DNA of 64,000 bases from an uncultured Alphaproteobacteria bacterium (lineage in GTDB: Bacteria; Pseudomonadota; Alphaproteobacteria; UBA2966; CAIVPW01), in assembly GCA_903907895.1 (NCBI GenBank), contig CAIVPW010000058.1, positions 2,393 to 66,392 of the forward strand, in the 5' to 3' direction. The translations under genes were made by a program, and so were the position numbers. Under the pieces are notes generated by a model. That model was not told where the DNA came from, searched no databases, and saw only the letters and a list, made by a program, of their open reading frames with translations. The stretch's first letter is position 1, and the number at the start of each line of letters is the position of its first letter. Below, one piece after another: positions 20,012 to 51,544 of this stretch.

Positions 20012-20138
20012 TAGCGCTCAGCTTGTGAAGGGGGCGCCCCGTACGCCTTGCTAACCCGGCGTCTGGCTGACCATACTTCGTCCGCGCGTAGGGGCCATGG
20101 CGCCGTGCTGTGGATGAGGCGCGCTTGTGGAGGCACCA

Positions 20139-20384
20139 ATGAACAAGATGATCGCCGCTATCCTCGCGGTTGGCATGATGGTTTTCGCCGGCGTCGCTTC
20201 GGCCGCCGACGTGAAGGGCGCGATCACTGCGGTGAACGCGCAGGCCCGCACCGTCACTGTCAACGGCGTGGCGTACACCTTCCCGGCCAACGTTGACATG
20301 GCCGGCCTGGCCGTGGGTCAGACCGTCAACCTGACCTACGCGACCGCCAACAACGTCAACACCGTTTCGAAGGTCACGAAGTAA
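20139..20384 (+). CDS. small secreted protein, DUF1344-like (paralog 1)
   Basis: MNKMIAAILAVGMMVFAGVASA signal peptide, then ADVKGAITAVNAQARTVTVNGVAYTFPANVDMAGLAVGQTVNLTYATANNVNTVSKVTK. GGAGG 7 nt upstream; strong terminator follows. Confidence 0.7.
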   Translation: MNKMIAAILAVGMMVFAGVASAADVKGAITAVNAQARTVTVNGVAYTFPANVDMAGLAVGQTVNLTYATANNVNTVSKVTK

Positions 20385-20460: not shown

Positions 20461-23058
20461 CTACTGCGGCTGCTTCACTTCGACCTTGATCGAAGTGATC
20501 TGCTCGATGCCCTTTGGGAACAGACCGAGTTGGTCCCACTTCAGCGCGCTGAACACGTTGGAGAAGTCATCGGTCCACGTTCGGACAGCTTTCACCTCGC
20601 CGATGTCTCCCCACGGCAGATCGCCTTCGCGTAGCGGCCTCAGGTCCTGCGCCGTGCGGCCGAGTACGACCCACGTGGTTGGCAGGGCAAAGAACGTGGC
20701 CGGGTTCGGGCTGAAGTCGACGGTTAGGGCCGCAAGACTCGCGTCCTTGGCGAGGTCAGCGACTACCGGCAGCAAATTCACGAACGTGTTGGTGATGTGC
20801 ACCATCAACTTGCCGTCGGGCTTCAGCTTGCGGAAGTAAAGCTGGATGGCTTCGCGCGTCAGAAGGTGAACGGGGATGCCGTCACCCGAGAACGCGTCGA
20901 GGAACAGCACATCGAACGTGCCGTCGGGCTCTTTCGCCACCGTCAAGCGTCCGTCGCCAAGAACGACATCCGAGCCGCACTCCTGCAGGAAGCGGAAGTA
21001 CTGCGGATCCTGCGCCACGCGCTCGACCACCGGATCGATCTCGTAATACGTCAGGCGATCGTTCGGGCCCATGTAGCAGGCGAGTGCGCCGGCACCGAGC
21101 CCCAGCACGCCGACTCGCATCGAGTCGTGACCGGTCGCACGCATCTGCCGGAAGAAGTGCCCGACCGGGCCGCGGTCGGTGTAGTAGGACACCGGCAGGC
21201 GCGGCAGGTCCATGAACTGCACGCCATGGATCGTCACGCCGTGCACGAGATAATGGAACCGGCTGGTGGTAGTGGTGAGGGGGCCGGGCGTGGTGTCTAC
21301 GCGATTGACGTAGATCGTGGTGACGCCGAAGAACGAGCGAATACGCGCGAGGCGATCTTCGCTCAGACCAAAGATGCCGCGGAACCGTTCTTGCTGCGCC
21401 TCGTTTAGTCCGATCGATGCCAGCGCACCGCGTAGTGTCGGGCCCGAGGGCAACAGCATATCGGGCGTCAGCGCCAGCAGCAGCGCCAGCACGGCGAGGG
21501 CGAACCGCACCGGCCGGCGACGGCCCATCCAGATCACCGCGACCAGCAGCAACACCGTAACGAGCAGTTTGCCCGTGTTCTCAAGGCTCGTGGCCTGCAC
21601 GGAGAAGTTGTCGCCGAGCAGCGAGTTGAACGCGGAATAGAACCAGCCGTAGACGGTGAACGCCGCGGCGATCAGGAACGTGCGCAGGCGGCCGCCGGCA
21701 ACAATCAGCCAAAGGATGAACGGCAGGGCGAAATCCCAGAAGCGCGGGTGCAGCAGGAGCCGGCCAACCGGCACCGTCTGCAGCGACTCCCGCACTTGCG
21801 CGACGGGCTTAAGGCTGGATATCCACCGACCGAATCGTGTCGAAGGCAGATTGCGCGGACGGAGGAGAAGAGCGAGCAGCAGCGCGATCGGATACTCGAA
21901 CACGCCGTCGAACACGAGCGGAGCGATGATCGCCGACAGAATGCCGCCGAGCACTCCGCCCAACGACATCCAGAAGTAGAACTCCGTCAGGCGCTCTGGC
22001 GGCGGGCGCAGGCGCGCGAGCTCCCCGTGCAGCACCATGGTGCTCACGAACATGGCCGCGAGGTGCAGGACGAGCAGGACATAGATCTGCGACGTCTCGA
22101 AGAAGATGGCGACGACCGGGACGATGACGAGCTGCGCAGCCAGCCAGAACCGTGGCGGGATGAGCGGCTTGCGTGCGAACACGAAGACGAACGTGAGCAG
22201 GTACAGAGTGAGTGGGATGATCCACAGGAAGGGCACCGCGGCGATGTAGCTGCCGATGTGCAGTGTTGAGCCCAGCAGCAGGGCCGACGGCACGAGGGCC
22301 AGCAACGTCCAGCGTCCTCGTACGCCCCACGTGACTTCCTTCGTCACGTAATTGTCGAGCGACTCCGCGGACGAAGCCTGCTCGGGGCGGAAACGCTTCC
22401 ACAGTAGGACGGCGCAGGTGAACAGCGCCGCGACCAGGAATGCGTACCCGATCATCCACGAGATGCTCTGCGCACGTACGCCGAGCAGCGGCTCGACCAC
22501 CACCGGGTAGCTGAGCAGCGCGAGCATGCTGCCAAGGTTGCTGGCGCCGTAGAGGAAGTACGGGTCACCCGACCAAGCGTGGTCGGTATTGGCGAACCAC
22601 TTCTGGATGAGCGGCGACGTTGCGGAAACCGCGAAGAACGGCAGGCCGACCGACACCGTCAGCACGCCGAGCAGCCACGGGATAGGCGAGTCCACCGGCG
22701 GCGGCGCCTCGCTGCCGGTCCACTGGAGGAGGCCGCCGGTGGCGCCGATGCCGATCGGCAGCACCAGGAACGCCGATACCAGCACGAACGCGTGCAGAAT
22801 GGTCTGGCGCTTGAGGCCCAGCAGCCGCGTGCTCAGGTGGGCGTACAGGTAGCCGGCCAGCAATACGGCCTGAAAGAACACGACCGACGTATTCCATACG
22901 GCTGGCGAGCCACCCGCGCGCGGCAGCACCATCTTCGTGAACATGGGCTGGACCGCGAACAGCAGGAACGCGCTCAAGAAGATCGTGATGGTGTACAGCG
23001 GCAACGTGAAAGAACTCACGCTGGCGCCCGAACGGCGGCCGGCAACGGTAGTGGACAT
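20461..23058 (-). CDS. polytopic membrane protein fused to a C-terminal spermidine-synthase-like (aminopropyltransferase fold) domain
   Basis: About 865 aa from MSTTVAGRRSG.... The N-terminal two-thirds is highly hydrophobic (more than 12 TM segments). The C-terminus has VGVLGLGAGALACYMG...YEIDPVV...LDAFSGDGIPVHLLT motifs of the spermidine synthase family. The ORF-track start at 23223 is rejected (rare codons, no RBS). Confidence 0.8.
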   Translation of the reverse strand: MSTTVAGRRSGASVSSFTLPLYTITIFLSAFLLFAVQPMFTKMVLPRAGGSPAVWNTSVVFFQAVLLAGYLYAHLSTRLLGLKRQTILHAFVLVSAFLVLPIGIGATGGLLQWTGSEAPPPVDSPIPWLLGVLTVSVGLPFFAVSATSPLIQKWFANTDHAWSGDPYFLYGASNLGSMLALLSYPVVVEPLLGVRAQSISWMIGYAFLVAALFTCAVLLWKRFRPEQASSAESLDNYVTKEVTWGVRGRWTLLALVPSALLLGSTLHIGSYIAAVPFLWIIPLTLYLLTFVFVFARKPLIPPRFWLAAQLVIVPVVAIFFETSQIYVLLVLHLAAMFVSTMVLHGELARLRPPPERLTEFYFWMSLGGVLGGILSAIIAPLVFDGVFEYPIALLLALLLRPRNLPSTRFGRWISSLKPVAQVRESLQTVPVGRLLLHPRFWDFALPFILWLIVAGGRLRTFLIAAAFTVYGWFYSAFNSLLGDNFSVQATSLENTGKLLVTVLLLVAVIWMGRRRPVRFALAVLALLLALTPDMLLPSGPTLRGALASIGLNEAQQERFRGIFGLSEDRLARIRSFFGVTTIYVNRVDTTPGPLTTTTSRFHYLVHGVTIHGVQFMDLPRLPVSYYTDRGPVGHFFRQMRATGHDSMRVGVLGLGAGALACYMGPNDRLTYYEIDPVVERVAQDPQYFRFLQECGSDVVLGDGRLTVAKEPDGTFDVLFLDAFSGDGIPVHLLTREAIQLYFRKLKPDGKLMVHITNTFVNLLPVVADLAKDASLAALTVDFSPNPATFFALPTTWVVLGRTAQDLRPLREGDLPWGDIGEVKAVRTWTDDFSNVFSALKWDQLGLFPKGIEQITSIKVEVKQPQ

Positions 23059-23377
23059 AACGAAACGCAACCTCCCCGAGGTGACCCGCGTGGGCCACCG
23101 GACATTCGATAGGCATGCCTTAAGCTCGCTTGCCCGCTCCGGCAAACGGCCGTTCTGCGACGATGAAGGCTTGCCCCCCGACGGGGCGAGTATGCCATGG
23201 GAAAACGGCACGGTGCCACGCACCGCGGGCAGAAACGCTTACGAACCCTGGGCTGAGCGGCTTGCAGCGGCCAACGGTTCCTGTAAGGAATGGGGCCCGG
23301 GGAAGCTTGTGGAGGAGGGCTCGCGGCCGTGCGGGCTGTCTGGGGCGTCCCGATAACGCGGAATGGGGAGTACTCGA

Positions 23378-23632
23378 ATGAAGAAGATTTTTGCTGGCCT
23401 GGTGGGCGCCTCCATGGTTCTGGCCGCCGGCGCCGCCGCCGCTGCCGAAGTCAAGGGCGCGATCAAGAACATGAACCTGGAAGCTCGCACCGTGACGGTC
23501 GAGACGACCACGGTTACCGTTCCGGCCGACATCAGCCTTAGCGGCTACATCGTCGGCACGAACGTCGTGATCACCTACACCACGGCCGGTACGGCCAACA
23601 CCGCGACCGCAATCGCTAAGGTTGCGAAGTAA
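23378..23632 (+). CDS. small secreted protein, DUF1344-like (paralog 2, divergent)
   Basis: MKKIFAGLVGASMVLAAGAAAAAEVKGAIKNMNLEARTVTVETTTVTVPADISLSGYIVGTNVVITYTTAGTANTATAIAKVAK. GGGGAG 8 nt upstream of the ATG. Confidence 0.65.
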   Translation: MKKIFAGLVGASMVLAAGAAAAAEVKGAIKNMNLEARTVTVETTTVTVPADISLSGYIVGTNVVITYTTAGTANTATAIAKVAK

Positions 23633-23690: not shown

Positions 23691-23935
23691 GCCTCTTACA
23701 ACCGTAAGTAGATCACGCGGCGCGATCTGCGTGTGTCCATGGGGCATCGTTTCGTCCCCTTGAAGCCTTCGGGCGCCACAACAAGTAGCGTTTAGGCCCA
23801 CGGCATGCACGCTACGCGCGGTGTCTTGCAAAGGCTCGGCCTTCCGTGTGAAATCGCGCTGGGAGGCACGAGCAAGATCCCGTCAATTGTGGCGGCGACT
23901 TGGTCGTTCCCTATTACGAAGACAGGAGCACAACT

Positions 23936-24181: not shown

Positions 24182-24211
24182 GCTAACCCTTACTCGTAAG
24201 GGCCCAGAAAA

Positions 24212-24250
24212 GGACGAGTGCGCAGACTGCGCACTCGTCCTGTTCTTTTT
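24212..24250 (+). terminator. rho-independent terminator
   Basis: GGACGAGTGCGC-AGACT-GCGCACTCGTCC hairpin followed by TGTTCTTTTT. Confidence 0.75.
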
Positions 24251-24395
24251 GCGGCACCGTCTGCGCGGTTGCCGCCGATATAAGCAGGCCATTTCAGGCA
24301 TTGGTTTCTGCGATCGCAGCAATAGGTTCAATACCTCTCCGGTATCTCCGCGCGGCGCTTGCAAAGCGGTCCGATTGCAGGTGATATCTCCGGCG

Positions 24396-24455
24396 GGGAG
24401 GCAAAGCAGTCTCGCCGAGGTGGCGAGAGTCCTTTGTCCCTCCCGTATCAGGAGG
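24396..24455 (+). promoter_or_regulatory. candidate SD-sequestering leader (anti-anti-SD GGGAGG / anti-SD CCTCCC / SD AGGAGG) upstream of paralog 4
   Basis: GGGAGG at 24396-24401, internal hairpin TCTCGCC-GAGGT-GGCGAGA at 24410-24428, CCTCCC at 24439-24444, and AGGAGG at 24450-24455 placed 9 nt before the ATG. Confidence 0.4.
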
Positions 24456-24464
24456 AATCAGTTC

Positions 24465-24710
24465 ATGAAGAAGGTATTGGCTGCCGTTACCGGTGCTGCG
24501 CTGCTGCTCGCCGCTGGCGTTGCTGTTGCCGCCGACGTCAAGGGTGCCATCACTGCCGTGAACGCGCAGGGCCGCACCGTGACCATCAATGGCGTGACGT
24601 ACACGTTCCCGGCGAACGTTGACATGGCCGGCCTGGCCGTTGGTCAGACCGTCAACCTGACCTACGCCGCCGCGAACAACGTCAACACCGTTTCGAAGGT
24701 GACGAAGTAA
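24465..24710 (+). CDS. small secreted protein, DUF1344-like (paralog 4)
   Basis: MKKVLAAVTGAALLLAAGVAVAADVKGAITAVNAQGRTVTINGVTYTFPANVDMAGLAVGQTVNLTYAAANNVNTVSKVTK. AGGAGG 9 nt upstream. The in-frame TTG-initiated extension from 24249 is rejected. Confidence 0.7.
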   Translation: MKKVLAAVTGAALLLAAGVAVAADVKGAITAVNAQGRTVTINGVTYTFPANVDMAGLAVGQTVNLTYAAANNVNTVSKVTK

Positions 24711-24744
24711 TCGATCGCTAGAGCTTTCTAGCCGACGATCTTCG

Positions 24745-24788
24745 GGGGCGGGTGCGCTGGCAACGGCGCACCCGCCCCTTCTTTTTTT
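24745..24788 (+). terminator. rho-independent terminator
   Basis: GGGGCGGGTGCGC-TGGCAACG-GCGCACCCGCCCC hairpin followed by TTCTTTTTTT. Confidence 0.75.
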
Positions 24789-29115: not shown

Positions 29116-29192
29116 TGGTCGGGGAGAGAGGATTCGAACCTCCGGCCCCCACGTCCCGAACGTGGTGCTCTACCAGGCTGAGCTACTCCCCG
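29116..29192 (-). tRNA. tRNA-Pro (anticodon CGG)
   Basis: Reverse complement: CGGGGAGTAGCTCAGCCTGGTAGAGCACCACGTTCGGGACGTGGGGGCCGGAGGTTCGAATCCTCTCTCCCCGACCA. Cloverleaf with anticodon loop TTCGGGA, T-loop GGTTCGAATCC and an encoded CCA. Confidence 0.85.
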
Positions 29193-30832: not shown

Positions 30833-31566
30833 TGGAAGCGCTCGCCACAACCGACGATCGCCTGCTCGGCGGCCGGGTCCTGTTGCGACAACCGGCGCAG
30901 GGCTATCGCGTGGCAATCGATCCCGTGTTCCTTGCCGCCGCCATTCCGGCGCGCGAGGGCTCGCGGACTCTCGAGCTCGGTGCCGGCGTGGGGGCGGCTT
31001 CGCTCTGCCTCGCGATCCGCATGCCCGGCGCTGCCGTTGTCGGCATCGAGTTGATGGAACCGCTGGTCGCGCTTGGCCGCTCGAATGTCCGCAGCAATGG
31101 ACTTGAGGGGCGAGTGGACCTGGTGCTGGGGGACGTCCGGGAGGCCATTCCGGCCGCCAGCTTTGACCACGCTATGGCCAACCCTCCCTTCGTTGAGGCC
31201 GGCCGGGGCCGCCGGTCCCCGAACCCGTTGAAGGGCGCCGCCAATATCGAGGGCGATGCGGACCTTAGGGCATGGGTCGAGGCGGCCTTTCGCGCCGTTC
31301 GCCCGGGAGGCACCGTGACGTTCATCCACAGCGCCGAGCGCCTCGGGGAGCTCGCGGCTCGCTTCTCCGAAGGGGGCGGCGGGATCGTGGTCTTTCCCCT
31401 TTGGGCCAAGGCAGGGGCCGACGCGACCCGAGTACTGGTGCAGGCTACCAAGGGCAGCCGGGCCCCCACCCGCCTGAGCGCCGGCCTCGTGCTCCATGAA
31501 CCGGGTGGGGCCTATTCGGCGGCGGCGGAGGCTGTGCTGCGGCACGGCCAGGGTCTGGAGGTGTAG
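30832..31566 (+). CDS. SAM-dependent methyltransferase (tRNA1(Val) adenine-N6 methyltransferase-like / methyltransferase small domain)
   Basis: LELGAGVGAASLCL SAM motif and NPPF catalytic motif (MANPPFVEAG). The usual partner downstream of DUF2007 genes. Confidence 0.8.
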   Translation: MEALATTDDRLLGGRVLLRQPAQGYRVAIDPVFLAAAIPAREGSRTLELGAGVGAASLCLAIRMPGAAVVGIELMEPLVALGRSNVRSNGLEGRVDLVLGDVREAIPAASFDHAMANPPFVEAGRGRRSPNPLKGAANIEGDADLRAWVEAAFRAVRPGGTVTFIHSAERLGELAARFSEGGGGIVVFPLWAKAGADATRVLVQATKGSRAPTRLSAGLVLHEPGGAYSAAAEAVLRHGQGLEV

Positions 31567-51469: not shown

Positions 51470-51544
51470 TGGTGGGGCTGCCTGGGATCGAACCAGGGAC
51501 TTCTCGCATGTGAAACGAGCGCTCTACCGCTGAGCTACAACCCC
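51470..51544 (-). tRNA. tRNA-Val (anticodon CAC)
   Basis: Reverse complement: GGGGTTGTAGCTCAGCGGTAGAGCGCTCGTTTCACATGCGAGAAGTCCCTGGTTCGATCCCAGGCAGCCCCACCA. Anticodon loop TTCACAT, T-loop GGTTCGATCC and an encoded CCA. Confidence 0.8.

Follow-up and report, generated by a model that had tools for sequence, protein, structure and literature searches.

The 64-kb stretch of DNA that was analysed (the window) contains four paralogous genes, P1 to P4, encoding DUF1344/CusF-like proteins of 81–84 amino acids with a signal peptide (Table 1). The fourth, for which 69 homologues were found, is followed by a DUF502 gene in the window and lies directly 5' of one in all relatives, within the conserved gene order large membrane protein (minus strand), P2, P3, P4, DUF502, small gene and Kup. 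P2, P3 and P4 each have their own terminator or, in the case of P2, a terminator-like hairpin followed by a T-run that was recognized by inspection of the sequence, and are therefore separate transcription units. CusF-like metal binding was considered as a clue to a possible signal and was dropped, since the mature P4 protein contains no His, Cys or Trp and a single Met.

Table 1. Coordinates of the genes, promoter-like boxes and leader elements in the window
Feature	Position	Strand	Remarks
P1	20139–20384		79% identical to P4
P2	23378–23632		49% identical to P4
P3	23936–24181		83% identical to P4
P3 intrinsic terminator	24211–24241		Terminator scan
Putative −35 box TTGCAA	24359–24364	+	Inferred; CTTGC kept in 8/10 orthologous upstream regions
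Putative −10 box TGATAT	24382–24387	+	Inferred; 17 nt after −35; last T invariant in the orthologous upstream alignment
5' arm GGGGAGG	24395–24401	+	SD-like, anti-anti-SD; invariant in 12/12 leaders
Middle helix, 5' strand CAAAG	24402–24406	+	Pairs with 24432–24436
Inner hairpin TCTCGCC-GAGGT-GGCGAGA	24410–24428	+	Extra G24417·U24421 closing pair; two covarying pairs
Middle helix, 3' strand CUUUG	24432–24436	+	Followed by conserved UC bulge, 24437–24438
3' arm CCUCCC (anti-SD)	24439–24444	+	Partner is the 5' arm or the SD
Spacer GUAUC	24445–24449	+	Sequence varies; length 3–6 nt across all orthologs
Shine–Dalgarno (SD) AGGAGG	24450–24455	+	GGAG invariant, 5–10 nt 5' of the conserved ATG in orthologs
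P4 coding sequence	24465–24710	+	81 amino acids; DUF1344/CusF-like, signal peptide; Pfam DUF1344 E = 7e-7; ATG 24465–24467, 9 nt from the SD
P4 intrinsic terminator	24744–24779	+	16-bp stem and T-run (terminator scan)
tRNA gene	29119–29192	−	Rfam gathering score
tRNA gene	51473–51544	−	Rfam gathering score

Although a strict sigma-70 scan called no promoter for the P4 leader, promoter-like boxes recur upstream of several members of the family. In P4-type upstream regions, a CTTGC −35-like box stands 5' of −10-like variants (TGATAT, TATGAAT or ATATT), and the orthologs carry GTATGAAT, CAATATT or CTGATAT at the −10 position. The sequence CTTGCAAAG of the putative P4 −35 region also precedes P3. 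P3-type genes have an invariant ATGTGAAAT in the −10 place, and their layout, TCTTGCR-N17-ATGTGAAAT-N5-7-GGGAGGCACG, is conserved even better than that of the P4 type. A promoter-like region followed by GG(G)AGGC is common to the P3, P2 and L052/L059-type paralogs. Furthermore, sequence conservation in the P4 type sets in abruptly at GGGG, 7–8 nt past the invariant T of the −10-like box. Because of this onset of conservation and the promoter-like boxes of the P4, P3, P2 and L052/L059 types, transcription of P4 is predicted to start at 24395 ± 1, in a region consisting of a C and then a G run (CGGGG), which would make the stem-loop described below 5'-terminal.

Several features of the surrounding locus were also recorded. 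On the minus strand, an open reading frame of up to 920 codons (20461–23223, counted from the first GTG) encodes a multi-pass membrane protein with only a faint match to Methyltransf_30 (E = 0.0095); a counterpart of 800–850 amino acids adjoins the P2–P3–P4 cluster in relatives with enough upstream flank. The palindrome TTCCTGTAAGGAAT upstream of P2 (23278–23291) is a candidate binding site for a transcription factor, or may belong to the −10 region; TTCCTG-N4-GGAAT is present in 6/8 orthologous P2 upstream regions, with the right half mutated in L034 and the motif absent from L038. At L030:1287–1596, an identical P4-type leader and gene stand beside a 383-amino-acid minus-strand gene in place of P3, which could reflect a rearranged locus or an assembly artefact.

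Layout of the P4 leader and of its paralogs

A first-pass annotation had described GGGAGG, a small hairpin, CCTCCC and the ribosome-binding site AGGAGG in the P4 leader, and all of the coordinates that it gave, including that of the ATG, proved to be exact. GGGAGG (24396–24401) is part of GGGGAGG, and CCTCCC is part of CCCTCCC. The annotation lacked the middle helix CAAAG:CUUUG, which links the inner hairpin to the outer GGGAGG:CCUCCC helix so that all three form a single bulged stem-loop of 50 nt, and also the position of this stem-loop ∼7–8 nt after a −10-like box. The arrangement GGGAGG-N25-50-CCTCCC-N3-9-GGAGG occurs once in the window, with an expectation of 0.00 from 100 dinucleotide shuffles. 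An upstream open reading frame driven by the 5' GGGAGG was rejected, as inspection of the sequence gave no start codon at a usable distance.

The terminator scan also flagged the inner hairpin together with its tail, GUCCUUUGUC, so that the leader might be read as an attenuator in which the two form a weak intrinsic terminator; in some orthologs the tail is more U-rich (GUCUUUUGUC). However, the U-tract of GUCCUUUGUC is interrupted, begins 3 nt beyond the stem and, in the consensus fold, forms pairs with CAAAG. No alternative structure suggests itself as an anti-terminator, and three terminator-like matches were counted in the region, compared with 2.2 ± 1.7 expected by chance. Attenuation is therefore considered to be very improbable.

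The leaders of the other paralogs were compared with that of P4. As had been annotated, a related element, GGGAGGCAC, is present in the P3 leader (23861–23869). The accompanying claim that the element TGTGGAGG is itself the ribosome-binding site in P1 and P2 held for P1 (20126–20133, with the ATG at 20139), but not for P2, where TGTGGAGG lies at 23308–23315, 62 nt upstream of the ATG at 23378, and the actual ribosome-binding site is GGGGAG (23365–23370). The string GTGGAGGCAC that forms the P1 ribosome-binding region (20126–20141, 5 nt before the ATG) recurs at the 5' ends of the P3 (GGGAGGCAC) and P4 (GGGGAGGCA, 24395–24403) leaders. One possibility is that ∼60 nt were inserted between an old SD and its ATG, giving rise to the long leaders; another is that P1 lost this segment. 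A third GGGAGGCA, at 31305, lies inside a coding region and was rejected as a chance occurrence.

In the P2, P3 and L052/L059-type leaders the 5'-terminal helix is kept and the anti-SD is absent. Their helices are GGCGGAGGC:GCUUCCGCC, GGCAGGC:GCCUGUC, GGGA:UCCC plus GGC:GCC around a bulge, and GGCGGAGGC:GCC-A-UCCG-U-CC. Because these leaders have a 5' helix without an anti-SD, the ancestral function of the leader would need no occlusion of the SD. The comparison indicates that it is the 5'-terminal helix that is ancestral and under selection in general, and that the perfect anti-SD is special to the P4 orthologs. The SD-like 5' end GGAGGC is invariant and common to the P4, P3, P2 and L052/L059 leaders; since it is shared by all of them and is the true ribosome-binding site of P1, its conservation cannot be credited to a switch alone.

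The paralogs also differ in how the SD is presented, as several P3 orthologs (L016:1875, L025:1887 and L029:1966) place it in a hairpin of its own with 6 bp (CUCUUG-AGUAAA-CAGGAG) that directly follows the 5' stem; the P3 leader of the window (23861–23935) has no such hairpin. The G-runs of the leader hairpins differ by one G between near-identical contigs (G10 versus G9 in the P3 leader of L038/L039; G8 versus G7 in L052 versus L054), which could be due to sequencing error or slippage.

Conservation and covariation among orthologous leaders

A total of 59 loci were collected from uncultured Alphaproteobacteria, mostly from metagenome-assembled genomes and metagenome contigs, lake samples included; some of the records are labelled 'Rhizobium sp. 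Q54'. A scan of genome contigs contributed at least three loci and a metagenome scan six useful loci, while most were reached via contigs encoding homologues. Alignment was performed on the 12 distinct P4-type leaders. The 5' arm, the anti-SD and the SD are retained in 12/12 of these, as are GGGGAGGCAA, CAGUC, GAGUC, UUGUC, CUCC and GGAG, and the hairpin loop and spacers are variable. Mean pairwise identity is 87% in the 50-nt stem and 67% in the spacer/SD region, compared with 56% at fourfold-degenerate positions of the coding sequence and 48% over the preceding 60 nt, and these values indicate strong purifying selection on the P4 leader.

The covariation is consistent with an RNA stem-loop. 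In the alignment, 96.5% of the cells of the 5' stem-loop are paired, compared with 45–59% when the partners are slid by 1–3 columns. The inner hairpin covaries, with U-A changed to C-G in three sequences and C-G to U-A in four. The middle helix shows G-C to G·U in three orthologs, and the outer helix is constant except for G·U in L003/L034 and in L038. Cells with G·U outnumber those with A·C by 8 to 1, which indicates that the structure acts as RNA, on the plus strand. This count bears on the possibility that the region is an operator palindrome or another repeat acting as DNA, or a chance arrangement. The region is indeed an imperfect inverted repeat, and its reverse strand also scores 32.8 bits with a covariance model (R1) built from the leader. 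However, the arms stand 25–30 nt apart and enclose a covarying hairpin whose loop varies in length, the window holds a single copy of a pattern with an expectation of 0.00, and every copy in the collected loci lies upstream of a P4-type gene. A DNA-level or chance origin is thus scarcely credible.

The second pairing, of the anti-SD with the SD, is equally kept, with 98.3% of the cells paired across the orthologs. In L038 a C-G pair of this helix has become U-A by a double change (CCUCC to UCUCC and GGAGG to GGAGA), and a change of C to U has extended the SD hairpin of L003 and L034, which in L003 is a perfect CCUCCU-CUUC-AGGAGG. Both sets of changes keep the 5' helix by means of G·U pairs, as would be predicted if both folds were important, and they hint that the occluded fold is itself under selection. 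However, the covariation of the SD:anti-SD helix amounts to two events only, and 35/500 shuffles match its score.

Searches for known elements were also performed. At the gathering score, Rfam matched no riboswitch or thermometer family anywhere in the window, the two tRNA genes being the only matches, and no family, ROSE and fourU included, matched 24390–24470 at E ≤ 10. Model R1 matched only upstream of P4-type genes, with a score of 91 bits for the P4 leader of the window and 8.8–17.5 bits for the P3 and L052-type leaders. A plasmid collection searched by protein and by leader DNA gave no match, and nothing on the leader was found in the literature on DUF1344. The leader motif is real, conserved and previously uncatalogued.

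Folding and access to the Shine–Dalgarno sequence

The RNA from 24395 to 24480 has a minimum free energy (MFE) of −32.2 kcal/mol (z = −2.7; 1/200 shuffles folds as well). In the MFE structure 24396–24401 are paired with 24439–24444 and the SD lies outside the stem; the RNAalifold consensus of the 12 orthologs is the same SD-free fold. In the best alternative, CCUCC (24439–24443) pairs with GGAGG (24451–24455). This occluded fold lies 1.7 kcal/mol above the MFE, or 2.9 kcal/mol with 30 nt more of the coding sequence, and costs 0–6.3 kcal/mol across the orthologs; in L003 and L045 it is predicted to be equal to or better than the free fold. In the two pure structures, the outer helix contributes −12.1 kcal/mol and the SD hairpin −7.6 kcal/mol, and direct refolding of the free into the occluded structure has to cross a barrier of ∼14 kcal/mol. 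The proposal that CCTCCC can pair with either GGGAGG or the SD in mutually exclusive ways was borne out: the two folds are close in energy, and the orthologs conserve all three elements.

The longer range 24380–24480, which had been suggested for a folding comparison, also contains an alternative SD pairing, but its MFE partner is UCUCC (24387–24391) and not CCTCCC. This fold was rejected as an artefact, because the segment lies in the putative promoter and lacks conservation among the orthologs. UCUCC comprises the end of the −10-like box and the next bases; it could pair with the SD if transcribed, and would be relevant only to read-through transcripts from P3.

The balance between the two folds in the ensemble calculation hinges on the first two or three nucleotides. 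With an assumed start at 24394–24396, the occluded fraction rises from 0.1% at 10 °C to 1% at 45 °C (0.6% for a start at 24395), whereas it is 76% at 37 °C for a start at 24397 and 96% for a start at 24398 or later. The occluded fold takes over completely once the first 2–7 nt are missing or blocked, and blocking the first 7 nt changes the unpaired probability of the SD from 0.00–0.57 to ≤0.02 in every P4-type leader. In the P3, P2 and L052/L059 types, blocking of the 5' arm has little or an inconsistent effect on the SD.

These results bear on the kinds of control that had been proposed for the leader. A thermometer would keep the SD paired in the cold and release it in the warm, whereas the ground state predicted for the inferred start has an unpaired SD, and no more than 1% of the ensemble is occluded from 10 to 45 °C. 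A riboswitch reading has in its favour that three mutually exclusive elements are present, one of them covering the SD, as in translational expression platforms, and that the small internal loops and bulges (C13/C37, G15/G35 and the UC bulge) are invariant while the stem pairs covary. However, the 50-nt hairpin that would have to act as the sensor is plain and unbranched with a variable loop, no sensor domain is evident beyond it, Rfam gave neither an aptamer nor any other match, and the motif is confined to one gene family of unknown function. A ligand riboswitch or an RNA thermometer is accordingly quite improbable.

We favour a different explanation, to which we assign an even chance: that the leader is a default-ON 5'-terminal stem-loop, which protects the end of the mRNA and clamps a latent anti-SD. 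The P4 mRNA would begin at or within one base of G24395, and its first 50 nt would fold during transcription, with GGGAGG:CCUCCC, CAAAG:CUUUG and then the inner hairpin forming the conserved, selected feature. No single-stranded 5' tail would be left, which is the layout of mRNA-stabilizing 5' hairpins, and a stabilizing role is suggested by this analogy. The stem would also keep its 3' arm, which is rich in C and constitutes a perfect anti-SD at only 5 nt from the SD, off the ribosome-binding site, so that the gene would be translated by default; according to the folding model, P4 is probably 'on'. Since RNA polymerase completes the 5' stem before it reaches the SD, a nascent transcript is expected to be ON and to remain so unless the 5' arm is removed. 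As the 3' arm is an anti-SD, the leader would nevertheless be poised: if the first 5' nucleotides were lost, never made or masked, CCUCC would re-pair with GGAGG and translation would stop. At most, this OFF state would serve as a fail-safe, and it would not be regulated. Several observations speak against the explanation. A purely protective stem would need no SD-like 5' arm, and CCUCC at 3–6 nt from the SD is a risk for translation. In addition, the occluded fold is predicted to be at least as good as the free fold in L003 and L045, and the changes in L038 and L003/L034 hint at selection on the SD hairpin.

There is also some support for a regulated ON-to-OFF translational switch, in which withdrawal of the 5' arm GGGGAGG lets CCUCC occlude the SD. 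Candidate triggers would be a small RNA (sRNA) with a CCUCC seed, an RNA-binding protein, a cut of the ∼20-bp stem by an RNase, or a start 2–3 nt deeper in the G run; an sRNA or protein partner would bind GGGGAGGCAAAG. Both pairings are kept in 12/12 orthologs with an energy gap of only a few kcal/mol, the spacer between CCUCCC and the SD stays 3–6 nt long while its sequence drifts, the computed response to a start shift of two or three nucleotides or to a block of nucleotides 1–7 is large, and L038 and L003 carry the changes described above. The same logic is found in the anti-anti-SD of thiM (PMC2018614) and in start-site selection at pyrC/pyrD (PMC6524683). However, no trigger was found: neither a trans partner complementary to the 5' arm nor CCUCCUCCC-type sRNA motifs were present above chance in the 64-kb window. 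The one covarying change is weak evidence, the 5' helix and ribosome binding would by themselves account for the conservation of CCUCC and GGAGG, the paralogous leaders lack the anti-SD, and with a start at the predicted +7/+8 position relative to the −10 box the 5' arm would be complete. The architecture and energetics of the annotated switch thus fit, whereas its ground state is ON and it has no evident sensor or trigger, and we regard regulated switching as a tentative possibility. That the leader represents a novel type of sensor, by which the mRNA would monitor its own 5' end through the identity or the intactness of its first two or three nucleotides, is a speculative and rather doubtful proposal. 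Likewise doubtful are the inputs that could then lead to silencing, namely the choice of start in the CGGGG run, 5' trimming or cleavage, and capture by an anti-SD-type sRNA or a protein. If such a sensor exists, one of several near-identical DUF1344 paralogs would have gained its own post-transcriptional control.

Comparison with known leaders

Among the systems with which the P4 leader can be compared, ROSE and fourU thermometers share with it a short leader with potential for pairing to the SD, and the P4 leader likewise comes from an alphaproteobacterium. However, the P4 SD is unpaired in the ground state, the leader has no Rfam match and no temperature dependence is predicted. In hok (tac/ucb/dcb) and in the TRAP-controlled trpE leader of B. 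subtilis, a 5' element is normally paired with a complementary box upstream, and a change in this pairing frees the box to sequester or release the SD; the trigger is 3' processing in hok and the binding of TRAP in trpE, whereas none has been found for the P4 leader.

Stabilizing stem-loops at the 5' terminus are known from bacterial mRNAs, for example the hairpin of the E. coli ompA 5' UTR. As in leaders of this type, the P4 leader would have a hairpin that begins at nucleotide 1 or 2 of the transcript and, downstream of it, a ribosome-binding site that is both strong and accessible, and P4 is a monocistronic gene for a small secreted protein. The start of the P4 transcript and an effect on its half-life are predictions, and the ompA hairpin is not known to have an anti-SD, whereas the 3' arm in P4 is a perfect anti-SD beside the SD. 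If the leader only stabilizes the mRNA, it adds a further case to the structured 5' UTRs that are not catalogued, one that is conserved within an uncultured lineage of freshwater Alphaproteobacteria. Its value would then lie mainly in annotation, as it provides a probable start of transcription, a boundary between transcription units and a candidate motif for Rfam.

[quoted passage not shown] The P4 leader shares with it three mutually exclusive strands, with the SD free when the anti-SD is paired with the anti-anti-SD and blocked when the latter is taken; it differs in having neither an aptamer nor an Rfam match and in that the anti-anti-SD would be the extreme 5' end of the RNA. Should the occluded fold be in use, the leader would be a compact, aptamer-free switch of 70 nt with its extreme 5' end as the anti-anti-SD, a design that would be easy to copy for synthetic control of translation and that would explain differential expression of tandem paralogs with nearly identical mature proteins.

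The closest parallel for sensitivity to the 5' end is start-site switching at pyrC/pyrD of E. coli and Salmonella, where two 5' nucleotides decide on the formation of a hairpin and the accessibility of the ribosome-binding site (PMC6524683). The P4 leader is also sensitive, by computation, to its first two or three nucleotides, and its predicted start similarly lies at a C and a G run. Alternative starts are hypothetical in P4, and its gene is not one of nucleotide metabolism. Furthermore, the polarity is the opposite of that in pyrC, where the longer transcript is the OFF form; in P4 the longer transcript would be ON.
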